Positions 9,869-32,281 of a stretch of 45,941 nucleotides of DNA are shown piece by piece. The notes under the pieces were generated by a model, which was not told the DNA's origin, made no database searches, and saw nothing but the letters and a program-made list of their open reading frames with translations. Each line of letters opens with the position of its first letter. Positions within the stretch are counted from its first letter, which is position 1. The stretch covers positions 1-45,941 of the forward strand of contig JAMOPO010000026.1 in assembly GCA_027064425.1 (NCBI GenBank), given 5' to 3'. The translations under genes and the position numbers were made by a program. The DNA is from Methanobacteriota archaeon (GTDB lineage: Archaea > JAADCQ01 > Methanopyri > Methanopyrales > Methanopyraceae).

Positions 9869-9947
9869 CCCCACCGGTGCGGAGCGGCCGCCCGAGACCG
9901 GTGCAGCTTTAACCGGTTAACTTTCCGGTTGCAAGGGGGTGCCTCCG

Positions 9948-11174
9948 TTGGGCAAGAAGGGCGGCAAGGATGACGAGCGTCACGATGACCACCACGACCA
10001 CCACGAGCGGGAGGACGACCAACCGGGCGACGACCACCACGGCGACCACGGTCAGGACCCGCAGCGGGACCACCCGGAACAGGATCTAGAGCATGACCTC
10101 CGAGACCTCGGCTCCCACAACGATCACGGGCACGATCACGACCACGGGCACGACCACGGCGAGCCCCAGCTCGACCTCGACTCGGACCACGACTCGAAGG
10201 CCGACCAGCCCGACGACGCCTCGGCCGGTCTGCCCGAGGACCCGTTCCGGGACCACGGTCGGGATCACGGCGAGGACCACGACCGGGCCCTCCACGACGC
10301 GTCGTCGGCGGGCGGGGACGACCACGGGTCTGGAGGCGACCCGGGCGACTGGCTGGACGAGCAGCTCAAGAGGTCGGGCTCGGCCGGCGACTCGTCCGGC
10401 GGTCCCGACGTGGGCTCGGACCTGCTCCAAAAGTCCGGGACCGAGGCCTCATCGTCCGGTGGAGGCTCCGGCGGGGACTCGGGGGGCGGAGACTCGGGCG
10501 GGGACGTGACGCCGGAGCCGGACGGCTCCGAGCCGCCGGAGATCGACGTGGACTGGACGAAGATCAACGTGTCCCAGGACGTCTCCGACACCGACGTGGA
10601 CATCACCAGCGTCAACGTCAGCGACAACGACGTGGACGTGGACGCCGACAGCTCGGTGAGCGTGGAGGACAACGACGTGAACGTGGTCGACTCGGACGTG
10701 AGCATCGACGCGGACGGGCCCATCGAGCTGGGTCCCAGCGACGACCCGTACCTCGTGATCGACCCGAGCGACGGGGTGCTGGAGATCAACGTGTTCGATG
10801 ACCCGATCTCGATCTCGGTCGGTGACACGGTGATCAACCAGCTGATCAGCGTCGTGAGCTGGCTGGAGGTACGGGTCGACTCCGGCGCCCTGCCCGAGGG
10901 TGTGGACCCGAGCAGCCTGCTGGACCTACTGTACCGGCTGCTGGCCTACCTGCTCGGCGTCTTCCACGAGGTCGCCCCGCTAAGCGCCATCATCGGCCTG
11001 TTCCAGCGGATCGCCGCCTACGTGCTCGAGGGAAGCCTCACGGTGTCCGTGGTGGAGCAGATCCTCCAGGTCCTGCAGACGGCGACCAGCCCGCTCACCG
11101 CCGCCCTGCAGCTGAAGACGATCCTAGCCGATGCGGGGATCTCGCTGGGCAGCCTCCTCGGCGGCCTCCTCTAA
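9948..11174 (+). CDS. orphan His/Asp-rich acidic protein
   Basis: Open frame of about 408 aa after a GGGGGTG RBS (TTG start). HD-rich N-terminus, Gly/Ser linker, V/D/S/N alternating segment, hydrophobic helical C-terminus. Confidence 0.75.
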   Translation: MGKKGGKDDERHDDHHDHHEREDDQPGDDHHGDHGQDPQRDHPEQDLEHDLRDLGSHNDHGHDHDHGHDHGEPQLDLDSDHDSKADQPDDASAGLPEDPFRDHGRDHGEDHDRALHDASSAGGDDHGSGGDPGDWLDEQLKRSGSAGDSSGGPDVGSDLLQKSGTEASSSGGGSGGDSGGGDSGGDVTPEPDGSEPPEIDVDWTKINVSQDVSDTDVDITSVNVSDNDVDVDADSSVSVEDNDVNVVDSDVSIDADGPIELGPSDDPYLVIDPSDGVLEINVFDDPISISVGDTVINQLISVVSWLEVRVDSGALPEGVDPSSLLDLLYRLLAYLLGVFHEVAPLSAIIGLFQRIAAYVLEGSLTVSVVEQILQVLQTATSPLTAALQLKTILADAGISLGSLLGGLL

Positions 11175-11182
11175 CCCGCCCC

Positions 11183-11247
11183 GCGATGATCGGACTGAGC
11201 TATGGCGAGCGCCGCCGGCGCGATGAGCGAGGACACGGGGGTGAGCG
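11183..11247 (+). ncRNA. candidate box C/D sRNA (tRNA D-arm guide)
   Basis: C GCGAUGA, guide UCGGACUGAGCUAUG, D' GCGA, GC hairpin, C' GCGAUGA, 14-nt guide, D GUGA. Boxes are degenerate. Confidence 0.5.
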
Positions 11248-11250
11248 CGT

Positions 11251-11271
11251 CTAACGTAAACGAAACGAAAA
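11251..11271 (-). terminator. U-rich terminator-like tract downstream of the 11308-11874 gene
   Basis: Minus strand reads TTTTCGTTTCGTTTACGTTAG, a rare T-rich run in this GC-rich DNA. Confidence 0.4.
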
Positions 11272-11307
11272 GCCCGGGGAGCGCACCTCCGACCCTCCCA
11301 GCCCCGC

Positions 11308-11874
11308 CTACCTCCCGTACCACCGCTCGCGCAGCCTCAAGGACAGGTACGGGCGCCAGCGCCCGAGCACACGGCCCAGCTTCCTCCTCAACCGTCCCGG
11401 CAGCTCCGACAGCACGTCCTCCAGCCCCTCCCGCGACTCCTCGAACTTCTCCCCGAACAGCAGCGCATCCTCCACGCGCAGCGCGATCGAGAACGCGAGC
11501 CCCGACGCCGACTCCTTCAGCCCCTCCTCCACCACCTCGCGCACGACGGACCGCACGGCCGACACGACCCGGCCGATCAACCGCCGGAACTCCGACTCCG
11601 AGAGCCCACGCAGCCACCGCACGAACTCGATCGCCCACTCGTTCCGGCCGAGGTAGATCGTCCGACCCCGATTGAACCGGGAGTCCCTCCTCCAACGGGC
11701 CACGTAGTACGGCCCGTACTTCTTCTTCCGACCGTTCACGCGGCGGACCCGGTACGTCCTCTCAAGGCTCGGCGGCTTGCCCCGCCGCGCGCACTCCAGC
11801 AGGATCTTCGTCAGCCGGACCTTCTCCTCGGGCTCCGGCGGGAAGAACATCCGACCCGGGTCGAACCTGGGCAC
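11308..11874 (-). CDS. basic orphan protein with KYGPYYVARWRR...GRTIYLG motif (recalled as Methanopyrus-specific DUF1678-like); start GTG 11874 or ATG 11850
   Basis: Arg/Lys-rich N-terminal half and helical C-terminal half; TTTAAA elements upstream at about 11877 and 11958. Confidence 0.75.
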   Translation of the reverse strand: MPRFDPGRMFFPPEPEEKVRLTKILLECARRGKPPSLERTYRVRRVNGRKKKYGPYYVARWRRDSRFNRGRTIYLGRNEWAIEFVRWLRGLSESEFRRLIGRVVSAVRSVVREVVEEGLKESASGLAFSIALRVEDALLFGEKFEESREGLEDVLSELPGRLRRKLGRVLGRWRPYLSLRLRERWYGR

Positions 11875-11989
11875 GCTTTAAACCCCCGGACCGGTCCGTC
11901 CCCCCACGCGGCCCCACATAACGCTTGCCCTCACCCCCCACACAACGTCCGGCCCGATTTAAAAAGCCCGATGCGACTTCGACAAGAGC

Positions 11990-12296
11990 ATCTATGCATA
12001 ATCCATGCATTGAGGTCGCTGGATCGTGCGTAATCGCTCATACCCACGACGCAACCTGGGCCCCTTAACCGTGCATTTGCTGACCACTGCCTACCGACTA
12101 TCTATGCATTATCTACGTATCATCCGTGCATCCAGGCCCGGCCCCGCACAACCGCCGGCCGCGGCCCCGGGTCCGGGGTAATACTGTATGCGCATGATCT
12201 ACGTACTAACCTTCCAGGACCATGCGTAGATCGTACCTCCGCAGGGCGCACTGCATGCGCACTATCATCGCGTGCTGTACGAACGATCCGTGCAAT
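11990..12296. repeat. AT-rich array of ATCYRYGYAT repeats with 11-bp tandem period
   Basis: Copies at 11990, 12001, 12067 (variant), 12100, 12111, 12122, 12197 and 12286, plus an inverted copy at 12222-12231. Confidence 0.8.
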
Positions 12297-12334
12297 CCGG
12301 GAATTTATTAAGCGGGCCGGGGGCTCCGACACGG

Positions 12335-12399
12335 GGGCGGATGAGCGGGCTGAACTCGGCCGAGGGTCTCGATGAGGAGGGGACCACGGGGCGACGCCC
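12335..12399 (+). ncRNA. candidate box C/D sRNA
   Basis: Terminal stem GGGCG/CGCCC enclosing C GGAUGA, guide, D' CCGA, C' CGAUGA, guide, D GCGA; TATA-like ATTTATTAA at 12303-12311. Confidence 0.55.
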
Positions 12400-12411
12400 G
12401 CGGTAACCCGT

Positions 12412-12479
12412 CGGGATGATGATCGCTCCCGATACGGTTTCCCGCAGACTGGTGACGAGTGCGGGACCCATCTGACCCG
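12412..12479 (+). ncRNA. candidate box C/D sRNA
   Basis: Terminal stem CGGG/CCCG; canonical C AUGAUGA (12416-12422), D' CAGA, C' GUGACGA, 13-nt guide, canonical D CUGA (12472-12475). Confidence 0.75.
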
Positions 12480-12511
12480 GGGGGTTCCCCCTGCTCCCGC
12501 TCCCGCTCCTG

Positions 12512-13858
12512 GTGCTTCTTTGCCCGGCCCCGGCCGCCGCCGACGTGACCGTGGACGTGGTTCCCTACGTTGACAGCGACGCGTGGTCGAAGGAGCACGT
12601 GAAGGCGCTGGAGGACTTCCTGCGGTGGTGCGAGGAGCGCGGGATCAGGGCCGCGATCTTCCACTACAACCTCTGCGAGCGCACGGCGCCCGGGATCACC
12701 GAGGTGATCCGAGGGTTCGCGGACCGGGGCGTGCTCACGGTCGTCGGCCTGCACTCCGCCTCGCACGCGATGGGCGGGCTGCCGCTCGCGATCCAGTACT
12801 GGGAGCTCGCGGTGAACCGCGACTTTCTGGAAAAGAAAGTGGGCCGCGCGGACCCCGTGCTCTCGGTCCCGTACTGGGTCCTGGACGTGAACACGCTGCG
12901 GGCGTGCGCGATGGCGGGCGTCCGGATCCTCGTGGACGGGAACGACCCGGCGGGGATGGGGCCGGAGCCGGGCGAGTGGTCGTCGATTCCGGGGCTATCG
13001 CGGCGGCTGGTCGTGGGCCGGTGGGACGTGGACGGGGTGCGGCTGTACCGGCTGCCCGCGGTGGCGTGGTCGGACCTTTGGGAGGAGGGGTCGACGGTGG
13101 ACGAGGCCTGCAGGCGGCTTCAGCGGGCGGTGTCGGGGTTGGTGGACGGGGGCTGGTGCCGGGAGGGTCGGGTGACGGTGTGGGTCCTGGTGCACCCGTG
13201 GGAGCTGGCGCGGCGGGAGTTCCTGCGGTCGTTTGAGGAGTTCCTGGACCGGGTCCGGTCGGGGAGGCTGGACTTCGAGCACGGCGGCGTCCGGGTGCGG
13301 TTCCGGCTGGCGGACCCGAGGGAGGTGGTGGAGCGGGTGGAGGAGTACGTGGCGCGCCCGCTGCCGAGGCCGGACCTGCCGTGGATCCTGCGGGCGGAGG
13401 GGTTCCCGGATCCCGGGCGGCTGCGGGCGGAGCTGCTGAAGGAGGCGTCGGAGGGGAGGGAGGACGCGGTGAGGGGGCTGCGGGTGCTGGAGATTTGGGA
13501 GCGGTGCATGCAGATCCTGTGGGGTGTAGACGGCGAGCTGCTGGCGCTGACGCGGGCCGGGAAGGTCACCCGTAGGCTCCGGGAGCTGGTTGAGAAGGTG
13601 GTCTCAGTGATCTGGAACGACGTGGGCGTGTACTCGGCGATCCGGGAGTGGAGGGACCTCGACGCGGCCCTGACGTTCGCGCGGCGGATGCTCGCGGACG
13701 TGATGGAGCTGGCGGGGGCCGTCGAGTCGGCCTACGCGGAGTTGGTGGCGTCATCCGGGAGGAAAGGTGGGCGGCGCCCCGTGGCCGCCGTTCCGACCCC
13801 GATTCCTCGCCCGCGGTCAGGAGAGGACGAGGAGGGCGGCGACGACCTGTCCGAGTGA
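12512..13858 (+). CDS. probable secreted polysaccharide deacetylase-like (NodB/CE4) protein; true start may be CTG at 12491
   Basis: Signal-peptide-like LLVLLCPAPAAA; VGLHSASH (HxxxH), SVPYW and VLVHPWE motifs; Pro/Arg-rich tail; 3' end overlaps hypF by 42 bp. Confidence 0.7.
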   Translation: MLLCPAPAAADVTVDVVPYVDSDAWSKEHVKALEDFLRWCEERGIRAAIFHYNLCERTAPGITEVIRGFADRGVLTVVGLHSASHAMGGLPLAIQYWELAVNRDFLEKKVGRADPVLSVPYWVLDVNTLRACAMAGVRILVDGNDPAGMGPEPGEWSSIPGLSRRLVVGRWDVDGVRLYRLPAVAWSDLWEEGSTVDEACRRLQRAVSGLVDGGWCREGRVTVWVLVHPWELARREFLRSFEEFLDRVRSGRLDFEHGGVRVRFRLADPREVVERVEEYVARPLPRPDLPWILRAEGFPDPGRLRAELLKEASEGREDAVRGLRVLEIWERCMQILWGVDGELLALTRAGKVTRRLRELVEKVVSVIWNDVGVYSAIREWRDLDAALTFARRMLADVMELAGAVESAYAELVASSGRKGGRRPVAAVPTPIPRPRSGEDEEGGDDLSE

Positions 13859-28881: not shown

Positions 28882-30135
28882 CTAACGCCCCCACAGCCCC
28901 CTCTTTTTCGCCTCCTCCAGCACCTCCCGCGCGTACCTGACCACGTACGGATTCTCGTCCGAGAAGCGCCCCTCGTACCGCCGCAGCGTCTCCTCAATCT
29001 TCTCCCAGCACTCGTCCGGCACCCGACCCGTCGTCGCGTCCCAGCCCAGCAGGTTCTTCACCCGCTTCAGCCACTCCGACGCGCCCTTCGCCCCGTGCTC
29101 CAGCATCGCCTCGACCCACTCCTCGTTCGCCAGCTTCTGATCCACCAACCGCCGGAGCTCGTCCTCCAGCGATCGCGTGATCACCCGGTTCGGATCCGTC
29201 ACATCGTGATGATAGCACTCCACCCGCTCGCCCGAGAGCTCCTCCGCCGCCGCGACCATCCCACCGTGGAACGCGAAGTGGCAGCAGCAGCTGAGGATGT
29301 CCCACTCGTGCGAGGACTGCGAGATCGAGACCGCCCGCACGTTGGACAGCGCCCGCTCGAACTCCTCGAAGGCCTCCTCACCGAACGCCTCCCGACCGTA
29401 GGCGTACCCGCCCCACCGCACGTACACCCGCGCCAGGTCCGACCGGCCCTCCCACGCGGACGCGTGCACGGCGTAGTTCACGCCGGCCCCGTACGCCCCG
29501 GGCGGGTCCCCGAAGACGCGGTGACCGCCCCCGTGCCGCTTCACGAAGTTCTCCTCCTCCGACTCGTCCCGGTCCCGAACCAGCTCGAACGCCTCATCGA
29601 GCAGCTCGATCAGGTTCGGGAACGCGTCCCGGAACATCCCGCTGATCCGGACCACCACGTCCACCCTCGGCCGACCCAGCTCCTCGACCGGGACCACCTC
29701 CAGCCCCCGGACCACGCCCGACTCGTCCCACCGGGGTCGCACGCCCAGCAGCCACAGGACCTGCGCCAGCACCTCACCGCCCGTCCGCATCACGTCCGAC
29801 GCCCAGAGCACGACCCCCACCGCGCGCGGGTACTCGCCCCGCTCCTCCCGGTACCGCTCCAGCGTCTTCTCCGCGAGCCGGCGCCCCACCCGCCAGGCCC
29901 GCCGGGTCGGCACCTTCCTCGGGTCCACCGAGTAGAAGTTCTTGCCCGTGGGGAGCACGTCCACGTCGCCTCGCGTGGGGTTGCCCGAGGGGCCCGGCTC
30001 GACGAACTCACCCTCGAGCGCCCTCACCGTGACCTCCAGCTCCCGCTCGCACGCGAGCAGTCGGCGGAGCACCGACCGCGCGAACTCCCGGGCCTCCTCC
30101 GTCACCGCCTCCCGCACGCGCTCCTTAAGACTCAA
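28882..30135 (-). CDS. CobN/ChlH-family chelatase, C-terminal portion
   Basis: LEGEFVEPGPSGNPTRG, VLPTGKNFYSVDP, LGRPRVDVVVRISGMFRDAFP, YGAGV; TTG start after a GGGGT RBS. Confidence 0.9.
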   Translation of the reverse strand: MSLKERVREAVTEEAREFARSVLRRLLACERELEVTVRALEGEFVEPGPSGNPTRGDVDVLPTGKNFYSVDPRKVPTRRAWRVGRRLAEKTLERYREERGEYPRAVGVVLWASDVMRTGGEVLAQVLWLLGVRPRWDESGVVRGLEVVPVEELGRPRVDVVVRISGMFRDAFPNLIELLDEAFELVRDRDESEEENFVKRHGGGHRVFGDPPGAYGAGVNYAVHASAWEGRSDLARVYVRWGGYAYGREAFGEEAFEEFERALSNVRAVSISQSSHEWDILSCCCHFAFHGGMVAAAEELSGERVECYHHDVTDPNRVITRSLEDELRRLVDQKLANEEWVEAMLEHGAKGASEWLKRVKNLLGWDATTGRVPDECWEKIEETLRRYEGRFSDENPYVVRYAREVLEEAKKRGLWGR

Positions 30136-30208
30136 ACCGGACCCCGCCCGCACACCGTACCACGAAACGTTACTAAGGTAACACCGGATAAGCCTTGAGG
30201 GGATCAGC

Positions 30209-32281
30209 GTGCGGGTCCTCTGCGTGTGCTCGAGCACCATCGTGAGAGCCGCCCGGCGCGTCGCCGAGCGCCTCCCCTTCGACCTCGAGGTCGCGACCCA
30301 GGACGACGCGCCCGGGTCCGGGAGCTACGACCTGATCGTCCTGCTCCGCGTCACCCAGCCCGTCGTCCCGGACGAGGACGCGGAGGTGGTGGCCGTCCCC
30401 CTCGACGGCTCCACCGGGGTCCAGACCCTGAACACCGTGCCCGACCGAGTCGTCGATCGCGTGCGCGAGTACGTCGAGCACGGTGGAGAGCGGAACCTGG
30501 AGCACGCCCTCCGCTACCTGGCGAGCGAGGTGCTCGGCCTGGACCTGGAGTACGAGCCCCCGGAGGAGCGACCGTGGGACGGTCTGTACCACCCGGACCG
30601 CGGCCTGCTGGAGGAGGCGCCCGAGCCCTCCGACCGGGAGACGATCGGGGTCTACCTCAGCCGGGAGATGTGGGTCTGGGGCTGCACCGACGTCCCCGAT
30701 CGGCTGATCCGGGAGGTCGAGCGCGCGGGCGGCCGGGCCCTGGGCGTGTTCACCAAGCCGGGCCGCGGGCGCCCGCTGGACGAGCTCCTCACGGTGGACG
30801 GTGAGCCGGTCGTGGACGCCCTGCTGGTCGTCAAGAAGCCCTCCTTCAAGCGGGGGTACGAGCGGGGCTTTGAGGCGCTCCGGCGGCTCGGCGTTCCCGT
30901 GATCAACGCGGTGATCTCCTGGTACCGAACCCGGGAGGAGTGGCGCGAGTCGGAGCAGGGGTTGAGCCCGGGCGACCTGGCGTACGGGGTCGCGATGGGC
31001 GAGCTTCAGGGCCGGGTCGATCCGATCCCGGTCGGGTTCAGGGCCGAGGGCGGGGGCTACGAGCCGGAGCCCGGGCGGTGCCGGCTGGCGGCTCGGCGGG
31101 CGCTGCGCTGGGCCCGGCTGCGCCGGAAGCCGCCGGAGGAGCGCCGGGTGGCGATCGTCCTGAACAACGGGATCTGCTCCCGGGGCGAGGCCGGGATCGG
31201 CGCGGCGATGGGGCTGGACACGTTCGAGAGCTTGGCCCGGCTGCTCCGGCGGCTGCGAGAGGAGGGGTACCGGCTGGACTGGGTGCCGGAGGATGGTCGG
31301 GAGCTGGAGCGGGAGTTCTTCCGGAGGAAGGCGTTCAACGAGTTCAAGAGCACGACCGTGGAGGACATCCTGGCCTCGGGTGGCGCGGTGGACCTGGTCC
31401 CGCTGGACCGGTACCTGGAGTGGTTCGAGGAGCTGCCGGAGGAGCTGCAGGAGCGGATGGTGGAGGAGTGGGGCGAGCCGCCCGGGGACGCGATGGTGGT
31501 GGACGACTGCATTGTAATCGCGGGGATCCGGACGGGCAACGTGTTCCTCGGCGTGCAGCCGAAGCGGGGGTGCGCCGGGACGGATTGTAGCGGCGAGGTC
31601 TGCAGGATCCTGCACGACCCGCACTGCCCGCCGACGCACCATTACTACGCCTTCTACCGGTGGATCCGGGACGAGTTCCGGGCGGACGTGCTCCTGCACG
31701 CGGGCACGCACGGCACGCACGAGTGGCTGCCGGGGAAGTCGGTGGGGCTGTCCGAGACCTGCTGGCCGGAGGTCTGCATCGGCGACCTGCCGGTCGTGTA
31801 CTGGTACATCGTGAGCAACCCGTCCGAGGGCACGCAGGCGAAGCGCCGCGGGTACTCGACGCTCGTGGACCACTGCCCGCCGCCGCTGGGCGGGACGGAG
31901 GCGGGCGTGGAGGAGGTGGAGGAGCGGCTGGACGAGGCGCAGCGGTCGGGCGAGGTGGACCCGCGCCTGTTCGAGGAGTGGGAGGCGAGGGCGGGTGCGT
32001 TCATCGAGAAGGGGCTGCACGTGATCGGGGAGCCGCCGCGAGATCCCGAGCGGCTCGCGGAGTTCCTGTACGCGCTCTGCCGGAACCGGCTCCGGGAGCT
32101 GATCGCCCGGGAGCTGGGCGTGGACCTCGAGGAGGTGCTGGAGCGGCCCGGGGAGGAGAACGAGGAGCTGGGGGTCGCGAACCGGGAGCTCGCCCGGGTC
32201 ATCGATGAGGTGGTTCGAGAGGTGTGTGAGGAGGTGGTGGCGGAGGAGCTCGGGTCCGAAAGGGATAACCCGCGGGAGTGA
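30209..32281 (+). CDS. CobN/ChlH-family chelatase, N-terminal portion
   Basis: RRVAIVLNN, GLDTFES, GNVFLGVQPKRG, HDPHCPPTHHY, HAGTHGTHEWLPGK, EGTQAKRRG, GLHVIG. Confidence 0.9.
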   Translation: MRVLCVCSSTIVRAARRVAERLPFDLEVATQDDAPGSGSYDLIVLLRVTQPVVPDEDAEVVAVPLDGSTGVQTLNTVPDRVVDRVREYVEHGGERNLEHALRYLASEVLGLDLEYEPPEERPWDGLYHPDRGLLEEAPEPSDRETIGVYLSREMWVWGCTDVPDRLIREVERAGGRALGVFTKPGRGRPLDELLTVDGEPVVDALLVVKKPSFKRGYERGFEALRRLGVPVINAVISWYRTREEWRESEQGLSPGDLAYGVAMGELQGRVDPIPVGFRAEGGGYEPEPGRCRLAARRALRWARLRRKPPEERRVAIVLNNGICSRGEAGIGAAMGLDTFESLARLLRRLREEGYRLDWVPEDGRELEREFFRRKAFNEFKSTTVEDILASGGAVDLVPLDRYLEWFEELPEELQERMVEEWGEPPGDAMVVDDCIVIAGIRTGNVFLGVQPKRGCAGTDCSGEVCRILHDPHCPPTHHYYAFYRWIRDEFRADVLLHAGTHGTHEWLPGKSVGLSETCWPEVCIGDLPVVYWYIVSNPSEGTQAKRRGYSTLVDHCPPPLGGTEAGVEEVEERLDEAQRSGEVDPRLFEEWEARAGAFIEKGLHVIGEPPRDPERLAEFLYALCRNRLRELIARELGVDLEEVLERPGEENEELGVANRELARVIDEVVREVCEEVVAEELGSERDNPRE

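Follow-up and report, generated by a model that had tools for sequence, protein, structure and literature searches.

What is a gene for a strongly basic protein, set beside a run of short repeats and flanked by small RNAs, doing in the chromosome of a Methanopyraceae archaeon? The locus lies in a 45,941-nt stretch of DNA, hereafter the window, surrounded by small RNAs (Table 1) and by genes for an acidic protein, for a deacetylase-like protein and for HypF. The original prediction saw here a protein with its cognate site, such as a replication initiator with an origin, a partition site or a transposase-less mobile unit. We followed it up in the 1.54-Mb genome that contains the window (G000), the complete Methanopyrus genomes G001 and G002, the closest draft relative G005, and G003 and G004.

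The basic string cited in the original prediction lies inside the 188-aa ORF 11308-11874(-), whose codon-position GC of 0.65/0.48/0.95 is of the coding type. With 45 K+R against 25 D+E and a pI of 11.0, its product does stand out from the proteins nearby, 23/26 of which have a pI of 4.1-5.8. The family name given in the original prediction was correct, because the Pfam search matched the ORF to PF07913 (DUF1678) over residues 11-187 (E 1.1e-33) with 117.2 bits, well above the gathering cut-off of 25 bits. The window's protein belongs to this family and carries 19/19 of its invariant residues. DUF1678 is the only Pfam family matched by the ORF, and no Rep_3, winged-helix or transposase family was found among the matches. 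The true start of the gene may be the ATG at 11850, as suggested by the alignment and by the TTTAAA that precedes the GTG by 5 bp. DUF1678 was present in 5/5 same-genus genomes and in 0/15 of the other archaeal genera searched, and is a Methanopyrus-restricted family. Its name is absent from the papers of the literature searched, and the family has no PHROG match.

Does the protein look like a DNA-binding protein? In the AF2 model, residues 1-125 (pLDDT 89.2) are arranged in the order alpha, three-strand, alpha, alpha, and the C-terminal half is of low confidence. A PDB sequence search returned nothing below E 0.18, and no DNA-binding relative emerged either from Foldseek with the model (E all >0.2) or from a VIA fold search with the N-domain (best Z 4.9). 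When the whole model was used for the fold search, all that appeared were helical bundles resembling its C-terminal half, where confidence is low (Z up to 6.4), and we set these aside. The AP2 or integrase arm-type DNA-binding domain is a three-stranded sheet packed on a helix. The DUF1678 model has three strands followed by helices, and AP2 or integrase N-domain chains are absent from the Foldseek and VIA lists. Ribbon-helix-helix chains are likewise absent among the fold matches, which are weak enough (best Z 4.9) to leave room for that fold. A homodimer prediction scored 0.02, which is no answer and counts neither way. A likeness of another kind is offered by DUF6788, a Pfam family of small GPYW/GPYY...YLG proteins from bacteria and archaea, which resembles DUF1678 in its three-stranded core with G-P-Y ... 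Y-L-G. The distant profile matches P0014-P0024 align over this core and Atlas neighbours bear DUF6788; Pfam itself links the two directly through a single weak signal, on one of the distant matches (E 0.059). The name DUF6788 was not found in the literature searched.

The lower-GC tract upstream of the gene and its phased repeats were both confirmed. The non-coding stretch 11875-12334 has a GC of 0.59 against 0.69 for the whole window, and the window holds 6 exact matches to the box ATCYRYGYAT against 0.40 expected by chance, all of them at 11990-12231; this number was reached in 0/100 shuffles. Nine boxes within one mismatch of ATYYRYGYAT form an array at 11990-12297. Genome-wide, 6/9 exact ATCYRYGYAT matches belong to this cluster, and, with one mismatch allowed, its 9 boxes in 300 bp compare with 3 in the next best cluster; it is the only such array in the 1.54-Mb genome. 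The boxes are 10 bp long and partly palindromic, with the core YYRYGYRT. In block 1, 116-260 bp upstream of the DUF1678 gene, any two of the six plus-strand boxes between 11990 and 12122 have starts that differ by a multiple of 11 bp, and a worn seventh falls on the same register. GC is 0.41 in the boxes and 0.65 in the spacers, against 69% for the genome.

Table 1. Features of the DUF1678 locus, in window coordinates.
Feature	Position	Strand	Remarks
sRNA1 candidate, left flank	11181..11249	(+)	GAUGA...CUGA...GAUGA layout, read from the sequence
T-rich stretch 3' of the DUF1678 gene	11262..11285	(-)	GGGCTTTTCGTTTCGTTT on the minus strand; holds one AAAAGCCCG copy; probable terminator
DUF1678 gene	11308..11874	(-)	188 aa, basic, pI 11.0, intact; Pfam profile match
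Two direct copies of CGTT(G/A)TGTGGGG	11912..11947	(-)	upstream/leader region of the DUF1678 gene; repeat D16
TATA-like TTTAAAAA, GC-rich flank	11949..11966		left arm of inverted repeat I2; putative promoter element
Array block 1	11990..12132	(+)	boxes at 11990, 12001, 12067, 12100, 12111, 12122, worn box at 12023; 11-bp register
Array block 2	12183..12297		boxes at 12197(+), 12222(-), 12286(+), further words resembling the box; does not share the register of block 1
TATA-like AATTTATTAAG	12301..12320	(+)	right arm of I2; sRNA2 follows after ~25 nt; putative promoter element
sRNA2	12334..12408	(+)	orthologue L013 1500-1574 abundant; conserved in G005 and G002
sRNA3, C/D-box-like	12411..12480	(+)	orthologue L013 1591-1666 abundant, depth ~750-800

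Array and gene lie together at several loci. G001 and G002 have a related array at the syntenic locus, no more than ~0.8 kb from a DUF1678 gene that belongs to the window's clade, and the element has stayed in this place through the deepest divergence among the sampled members of the genus. The search for empty sites in relatives proposed by the original prediction did yield one: in G005, 29 bp stand in place of 11247-12337, and gene and array are both absent. Neither the array nor the window's DUF1678 clade was found in G003, G004 or G005, and G003 does not bear on presence or absence at the locus because the syntenic region is outside its assembly. Three of the six genomes are drafts (87-94% complete), and the co-occurrence seen across the six amounts to about two independent events. 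Three clusters of at least five boxes are present in the whole of G002. Two of these have a DUF1678 gene downstream at no more than 1.1 kb, which at one of them, a third array locus of G002, belongs to the same clade but has decayed to a pseudogene. This link between a phased box array and the DUF1678 family is new here.

On the other hand, G001 and G002 each carry a second array copy after the RLI gene, with no DUF1678 gene nearby, and the two copies recombine, since a gene-conversion tract makes the G002 pair 87% alike against 67% for the G001 pair. Both G002 copies are placed between convergent genes and therefore cannot be simple operators there. The solo copies and their recombination, together with 11-bp phased short repeats in two blocks reminiscent of parC of plasmid R1, would suit a docking strip for some other factor, centromere-like in segregation or chromatin-organising, beside which the DUF1678 gene sits incidentally. 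We regard this as rather unlikely: the adjacency recurs at 2/3 of the largest G002 clusters and in the window, gene and array were lost jointly in G005, and no partition NTPase gene is found beside any array copy.

One might also ask whether the array still has a function. The orthologous copies of G001 and G002 have drifted to 74-75% identity, against 91.6% for mcrA, a divergence that is compatible with near-neutral drift and counts against a docking role. Moreover, the array is missing at the G005 locus, the second copy is missing in G000, and transitions would by themselves suffice to produce the Y/R degeneracy seen in the box. The array could then be a decaying AT-rich insertion or a terminator spacer without present function, its repeats being relics. 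Such decay is a minority explanation in our view, at a probability of somewhat under one in five, and it has to face the retention of the element at one locus through that deepest divergence, the state of the G000 boxes, which have kept their AT-richness and 11-bp register between spacers that turned GC-rich, and the lack of a comparable cluster elsewhere in 1.54 Mb.

Further evidence comes from the DNA upstream of other family members, where a clade-specific word is repeated at fixed places before each gene: an inverted one marks the promoter, and the rest are found 60-400 bp upstream. Among 42 metagenome DUF1678 loci, 40 have their own clade word: TTGTAAT at 22 (inverted copy at about -31 in 20 of those) and TTGTATGG at 18 (near -140 and -80; 17 of those also have it inverted at -15). 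Both words occur together at 0 loci, neither at 2, and a box cluster at 0. In G000, 8/12 sites of TTTGTAAT fall within 400 bp of DUF1678 genes, an interval that amounts to 0.8% of the genome. By our own reading, ATTTGTGCGT, which is the word at the syntenic clade's promoter in G002, fits the box pattern at 9/10 positions, and the leader words TTGTGTGG and TTATGTGG of the window, found once and twice in G000, fit 7/8 positions of the box core; the latter may act as an operator, by analogy with other DUF1678 clades. Since TTGTGCG, the word at the promoter in the syntenic clade, differs from the box, the array could be recognised by a protein other than DUF1678. Of the proposed protein and cognate-site module, what stood is the linkage of array and gene, their joint absence in G005 and the clade words. 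What fell is the expectation that every paralogue has an upstream ATCYRYGYAT array: no other G000 paralogue has one, nor does the clade-C pair (G002 542k, G001 810k).

Considering all the above results, our leading reading, to which we give a little less than an even chance, is that DUF1678 is a site-specific DNA-binding protein and that the array is its cognate, helically phased docking and operator region, in an iteron- or parC-like layout that appears dispensable. The solo RLI-side copies, the array-less clade-C pair and the lack of a DNA-binding fold relative all weigh against this reading.

Assuming that the docking reading holds, the DUF1678 gene would encode a small basic protein that recognises specific sequences, and the adjacent array would supply its docking sites. 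Members of the family may be self-contained units, each gene preceded by several copies of its clade word with one inverted at the promoter; for the window's clade, this word would be the ATCYRYGYAT box, multiplied to at least 9 copies. Of these, 6 or 7 would fall on one helix face at 11-bp spacing. Protein units might occupy adjacent boxes in a cooperative manner, forming an unbroken nucleoprotein strip. The two TATA-like elements lie in the arms of the inverted repeat I2, whose left arm (17 nt) is 82% complementary to 12304-12320. Since the strip would abut both the promoter of the gene itself and that of the divergent small RNA, we propose that it may repress or tune both; it could also serve as a chromosomal landmark.

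The flanking RNAs had been described as C/D sRNA candidates on both sides. Small RNAs do flank the locus, and the two right-hand ones have abundant orthologues; the C/D identity comes down to a single sub-threshold match, as Rfam sR7 scores 16 bits on 12412-12477 (sRNA3) against a gathering score of 37, and nothing in the region exceeds an Rfam threshold. sRNA1 and sRNA2 share the GAUGA...CUGA...GAUGA layout. The former has no Rfam match and is conserved beside the diphthamide-synthase gene in G005 and G004; the orthologue of the latter reaches a contig depth of ~2100 and has poly(A)-tail ends. sRNA3 is 89-91% identical to its G001 and G004 counterparts.

Might the array itself act as RNA, being a non-coding RNA or a 3'-UTR element? 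Contigs from the RNA libraries of the G002 organism, which were size-fractionated, begin in the upstream gene and cover the array completely, up to a poly(A)-tailed end at a T-run after a hairpin (L013 643-1081, end 1057), and TATA-like elements precede 3/4 of the G001 and G002 copies. The G002 array appears to be transcribed at a low level as the 3' end of the upstream mRNA, a further point against docking. The transcript's start, strand and level are not given by these data because they are kept as contigs, in which the array has a depth of ~10 against 700-2600 for the neighbouring sRNAs. The syntenic G002 DUF1678 gene is uncovered by the contigs save for a chimeric 112-nt piece, which says nothing on its expression. 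In G000, by contrast, the array is located between two outward-facing TATA-like elements and not in a 3' UTR, no Rfam match covers it, and AT-rich RNA would be unstructured at the organism's growth temperature. An RNA role therefore strikes us as improbable.

The proposed mobile unit found no support. The 9-bp flanking repeat AAAAGCCCG is present but at chance level: the region contains 8 distant exact 9-mer pairs against 4.9 expected, a number matched by 16% of shuffles. We rejected both this repeat and the 10-bp GACACGGGGG, which sits at the G000/G005 junction, as insertion scars, since both occur at chance frequency. A transposon was likewise discarded, with no transposon ends and no transposase family match. 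Homology among paralogues spans only promoter and gene (~690 bp) and ends at the promoter and the stop codon. One G002 paralogue ends in an AT-rich tail of 130 bp, which recurs a single time, as a partial copy.

To our knowledge, no replication origin has been mapped in Methanopyrus, and the array could be imagined as an iteron-type chromosomal origin, with the DUF1678 protein as an initiator independent of Orc1/Cdc6. The layout does recall Rep plus iterons, with phased direct repeats beside a basic-protein gene and a related word at its promoter; G000 has a single array, and the arrays of G001 and G002 are conserved in position. Orc1/Cdc6 was not found in these three genomes, where the best TIGR02928 match scored 23.8 bits against a cut-off of 181.3 and the candidates turned out to be generic AAA+ matches only. 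Passages of two earlier papers also describe the Methanopyrales as devoid of Orc1/Cdc6 and suppose a non-orthologous replacement (PMC3914693, PMC2643942). We nonetheless give this origin reading little credence. The G002 arrays, at 85.8 and 604.4 kb, are off the extremes of the cumulative GC, AT, RY, MK and gene-strand curves, in a species whose skew signal is weak (GCSI 0.023; PMC2684130, Table 2). The GC and gene-strand minima of G002 coincide at ~462 kb, and an origin-like gap at that strand switch was rejected, the stretch being coding and without notable repeats. Genes converge on both G002 arrays, the site is empty in G005 and the array was not found in G003 or G004 either, no helicase, primase or ATPase gene adjoins it, and by-eye comparison with the ORB expressions listed in PMC4164010 revealed no ORB-like motif. 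The GC-skew flip of the original prediction proved to be a local effect of one minus-strand gene, as the 1-kb skew switches sign many times across the window, and no genome-scale inversion marks the arrays of the complete relative G002. Nothing ties the site to replication initiation, and an origin function for the arrays is not supported. It is equally doubtful that a plasmid-like iteron system took over chromosome replication, with one origin in the window's species and two in M. kandleri.

If the docking reading is right, an uncharacterised genus-restricted family gains a concrete candidate role, as site-specific DNA-binding proteins each with its own DNA word, and the DUF1678 protein becomes the candidate binder for the phased arrays of M. 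kandleri. Methanopyrus grows at up to about 110 °C. True binding would imply a new protein fold that recognises helically phased DNA sites under extreme heat, and would provide a precise probe for the role of the array in gene control, chromosome organisation or replication.

The locus can be compared with several known systems. With archaeal oriC, composed of ORB motifs and orc1/cdc6, it shares a unique, non-coding, lower-GC repeat cluster in the chromosome; it differs in a box unlike the ORB motifs (PMC4164010), in lacking an orc1/cdc6 gene and in the converging genes of G002. Iteron replicons also have a direct-repeat array upstream of the presumed binder's gene and a related inverted word at the promoter; the iteron-type phasing of 6-7 boxes in 11-bp register is a layout resemblance only. 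In mini-F RepE, R6K Pi and pPS10 RepA, the direct repeats are ~22 bp apart, against 11 bp here, and our locus further differs in having no Rep_3 or winged-helix match, no sign of initiation and a site dispensable in the near relative G005. Lambda CI and AraC are autoregulators with auxiliary upstream operators and looping, of which the inverted promoter word of DUF1678 genes and its further copies 60-400 bp upstream are reminiscent; their fold is unrelated, and the number and phasing of sites in the window go far beyond a usual operator set. In the type II partition system parC/ParR of plasmid R1, finally, repeats spaced by 11 bp form two blocks, which adjoin a promoter and a gene encoding a small protein that binds DNA. 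Here, the boxes are 10 bp and partly palindromic, the site is chromosomal, the adjacent genes include no partition NTPase, actin-like or other, and no ribbon-helix-helix match was obtained. The spacing, the two blocks and the adjoining promoter and small basic protein gene are nevertheless alike, and the sites of the array could, as in parC, serve both autoregulation and docking.

The protein string quoted in the original prediction is contained in an open reading frame that we regard as a real gene, since its codon-position GC (0.65/0.48/0.95) is the same as in real genes of the window, it matches Pfam DUF1678 with an E-value of 1.1e-33, and its product has a pI of 11.0, compared to pI 4.1-5.8 for 23 of the 26 neighbour proteins. 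The window comes from a methanogen and has a GC of 0.69; among its genes are the mcr and mtr operons, HypF, aro genes and the terminal part of a 23S rRNA. Elsewhere in it, a CobN/Mg-chelatase match is split over two reading frames on opposite strands.

The non-coding stretch located 5' of the DUF1678 gene (460 bp, GC 0.59) harbors six copies of ATCYRYGYAT, against 0.4 expected for the window, and none of 100 shuffles reached six. The whole 1.54-Mb assembly (G000) contains nine exact copies, six of them in this array, and allowing up to one mismatch to ATYYRYGYAT we found 9 boxes in 300 bp at the array vs 3 in the second-best cluster of the genome. A worn copy at 12023 stays in the 11-bp register of the first block. 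The boxes have a GC of 0.41 and the spacers between them 0.65, and two outward-facing TATA-like elements, which together form the inverted repeat I2, flank the array. Box counts, shuffles and register thus confirm the array of phased repeats predicted upstream of the basic gene.

Features of the window and box clusters of the G002 chromosome
Feature	Position	Strand	Remarks
Acidic protein gene	9939-11174	plus	411 aa
sRNA1	11181-11249		small RNA gene
DUF1678 gene	11308-11874	minus	188 aa
Array block 1	11990 to 12122	plus	six boxes, starts spaced at exact 11-bp multiples
Array block 2	12183-12297	mixed (one box inverted)	boxes off block-1 register
sRNA2	12334-12408		small RNA gene
sRNA3	12411-12480		small RNA gene
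Deacetylase-like gene	12512-13858	plus	448 aa
CobN/Mg-chelatase, minus-strand frame	28882-30240	minus	profile positions 676-1083
CobN/Mg-chelatase, plus-strand frame	30209-32281	plus	profile positions 2-519
G002 cluster 1			RLI copy; at least 5 boxes
G002 cluster 2			syntenic copy; at least 5 boxes; 1.06 kb from DUF1678 gene
G002 cluster 3	226.76 kb		at least 5 boxes; 333 bp upstream of decayed DUF1678 gene

While gene and array are real, the flanking repeat and the skew flip described with them did not hold up as signals. The 9-bp repeat AAAAGCCCG is present, but at a frequency not above chance: eight distant exact 9-mer pairs were seen vs 4.9 expected, and 16% of shuffles contain as many. 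Since its two copies lie in a probable T-rich terminator and in a TATA-like element, respectively, we do not take AAAAGCCCG for the scar of an insertion. The skew flip reflects a single minus-strand gene locally, and the 1-kb skew switches sign repeatedly along the window.

DUF1678 is found in five of five other Methanopyrus genomes and in none of the 15 other archaeal genera searched. Copy numbers range from 2 to 19, with about nine places in G000 (ten matches, two being pieces of one gene). Among 1.84 billion representatives, a profile search returned only 24 proteins at E <= 0.001; the distant ones have the G-P-Y ... Y-L-G core alone in common with the family, and both Pfam and the Atlas give a weak lead to DUF6788. 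The literature searched contains no mention of 'DUF1678', of 'DUF6788', or of 'Methanopyrus' jointly with 'iteron'. AlphaFold2 confidently models residues 1-125 (pLDDT 89.2) as a helix, a three-stranded sheet and two helices, and gives a poor model of the C-terminal half. Because neither Foldseek (E > 0.2) nor VIA-align (best N-domain Z 4.9) returned a convincing solved relative, a conceivable resemblance to AP2 or integrase arm domains finds no support in these searches. In a maximum-likelihood tree of 35 rows, which left out same-gene duplicates (L010, L011, L024, L042) and short fragments (L031, L033), the window protein is a long branch that joins the clade of DUF1678 genes at the matching locus of G001 and G002, the complete Methanopyrus genomes (support 93/90, to be taken with caution given the long branches).

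The mcrA tree reads ((G003,G005),G000,(G004,(G001,G002))), G003, G004 and G005 being drafts of the same genus. G005 has an empty site, where 29 bp replace window 11247-12337 and neither the DUF1678 gene nor the array is present. The order there is diphthamide synthase, sRNA1, the 29 bp, sRNA2, sRNA3 and the deacetylase-like gene, the small-RNA region being 86% identical to that of the window; the acidic gene is also lacking. The array is absent from G004 at both junctions matching the window locus, the corresponding locus of G003 is not assembled, and neither clustered boxes nor a gene of the window's clade were found in these three drafts (87-94% complete). Gene and array occur at this locus in G000 as well as in G001 and G002, which is most simply explained by an old module later deleted in the G003/G005 lineage, in which it appears not to be essential.

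Several neighbouring features deserve mention. The acidic protein has a strongly acidic, His/Asp-rich sequence, belongs to no Pfam family, and has a hydrophobic C-terminal domain conserved in G001, G002 and G004; in G005 its gene and the DUF1678-plus-array segment are both gone, yet the intervening sRNA1 was kept. The deacetylase-like protein, whose sole match is a sub-threshold polysaccharide-deacetylase, occurs in the window and G005 and is missing at the same position in G001/G002, which have an 84-aa membrane-like reading frame nearby instead. In G004, about 2 kb at a contig end (L048, C86:1-3000) has 30-47% GC vs 63% for mcrA of the same genome, and is possibly foreign DNA.

At the syntenic site, G001 and G002 carry an AT-rich element of 285 bp that contains boxes of this type, directly 3' of the acidic-gene orthologue and followed by the same small RNAs, a DUF1678 gene and HypF. 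This DUF1678 gene lies ~0.8 kb from the element, beyond the small RNAs, and the region is therefore rearranged relative to the window. Both genomes have a second array copy after the RLI gene, a site without an array in G000. Orthologous G001/G002 arrays are 74-75% identical and group by locus; within genomes, the two G001 arrays share 67% identity and the two G002 arrays 87%, with an almost identical central tract. This pairing by locus and the differing within-genome identities indicate that the duplication predates the G001/G002 split and that recent gene conversion occurred in G002. We tiled the whole G002 chromosome and listed all clusters of at least three boxes, and only three have at least five; the decayed DUF1678 gene near the third has the promoter words of the syntenic clade. 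In G001, a small AT-rich island at ~1,345.5 kb (L046, 1000-1070) contains two exact boxes at a spacing of 11 bp as well as one with at most one mismatch, and is distant from all DUF1678 genes found in that genome.

Four size-fractionated RNA libraries from one study, available as contigs, cover the G002 locus. Their contigs extend from the 3' part of the acidic gene across the entire array, and in one run a contig (L013 643-1081) ends at 1057 with a poly(A) tail at a T-run after a hairpin, at a depth of ~10. The array in this species is therefore part of a low-level 3' transcript, a setting that differs from that of the window, where it lies between outward TATA-like elements. Depths for the sRNA2 and sRNA3 orthologues, located to its right, are 700-2600, and their 3' ends are tailed. 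As for the small RNAs themselves, the GAUGA-N5-CUGA ... GAUGA layout common to sRNA1 and sRNA2 is unusual, and only sRNA3 gives an Rfam C/D-box match, a weak one.

The original prediction proposed testing whether each paralogue has such an array upstream. In G000 the test failed: all seven other full-length paralogues lack boxes in the 200 bp around the 3' end of the gene, and their loci contain no cluster. Instead, each clade has its own upstream words: TTGTATGG upstream and CCATACAA at the promoter in the large G002 clade, TTTGTAAT and ATTACAAA in the G000/G003/G005 clade, and CGCACAAA and TTTGTGCG in the syntenic clade. Of the 12 TTTGTAAT sites in the G000 genome, eight are located 400 bp or less from DUF1678 genes, in regions that together amount to 0.8% of the genome. 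Among 42 independent metagenome loci, TTGTAAT occurs at 22 (inverted copy at about -31 in 20) and TTGTATGG at 18, at about -140 and -80 (inverted copy at -15 in 17, extra copy 333-395 bp upstream in eight); none has both words, two have neither and none has a box cluster. Since these loci repeat the clade-specific pattern, the family is composed entirely of modules in which a gene is paired with sites specific to its clade.

By our reading, and the pattern is degenerate, the syntenic-clade word ATTTGTGCGT in G002 fits the box at 9 of 10 positions and the window gene's leader words fit the core YYRYGYRT at 7 of 8; of these leader words, TTGTGTGG occurs just once in G000 and TTATGTGG twice. In G002, 5 of the 12 large-clade copies are followed by AT-rich tails that include one or two boxes, and box density in the 200-bp 3' flanks is 8 times that of the rest of the loci (7 in 4.4 kb vs 14 in 70 kb), a figure not independent of the AT-richness of these tails. 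Near ~1,363.0-1,363.5 kb of G002 (L016, 69-480), ~1 kb upstream of a paralogue, we noted tandem repeats with a 36-bp word in three exact occurrences, and an AT-rich island at 1,363.5-1,363.9 kb.

A replication origin with its initiator had also been proposed. Passages in two papers describe Methanopyrales as lacking Cdc6/Orc1 and suppose a replacement (PMC3914693, PMC2643942), another refers to a rapidly evolving homologue of Orc1/Cdc6 in class I methanogens (PMC4390880), and we found no Orc1/Cdc6 over the NCBIfam cut-off in G000, G001 or G002. The GC-skew index of M. kandleri (0.023) is below the 0.05 that its authors set for usable skew (Table 2, PMC2684130). In G002, the detrended cumulative GC skew is lowest at 461.9 kb and highest at 1,036.5 kb; a crude gene-strand curve is also lowest at 461.9 kb and peaks later, at ~1.55 Mb. 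None of the GC, AT, RY, MK and strand curves has an extreme at the arrays (85.8 and 604.4 kb), and the genes flanking these arrays converge on them. Skew, strand and gene-direction tests therefore do not favour an origin at the arrays. At ~461.9 kb itself (L084), both minima fall on two divergent genes separated by 18 bp, a weak signal, and inspection of the ~462 kb region revealed nothing origin-like, no repeats and no gap.

Altogether, the best-supported reading is that of a DNA-binding protein, putatively the DUF1678 product, that would bind a cognate, helically phased site array. What is new is that a third species, a GC-rich one, also has the array, that the site is empty in G005, and that the array is tied to DUF1678 with its clade-specific words. 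In architecture the module comes close to iteron/Rep and parC/ParR systems, but it does not display the defining features of either.
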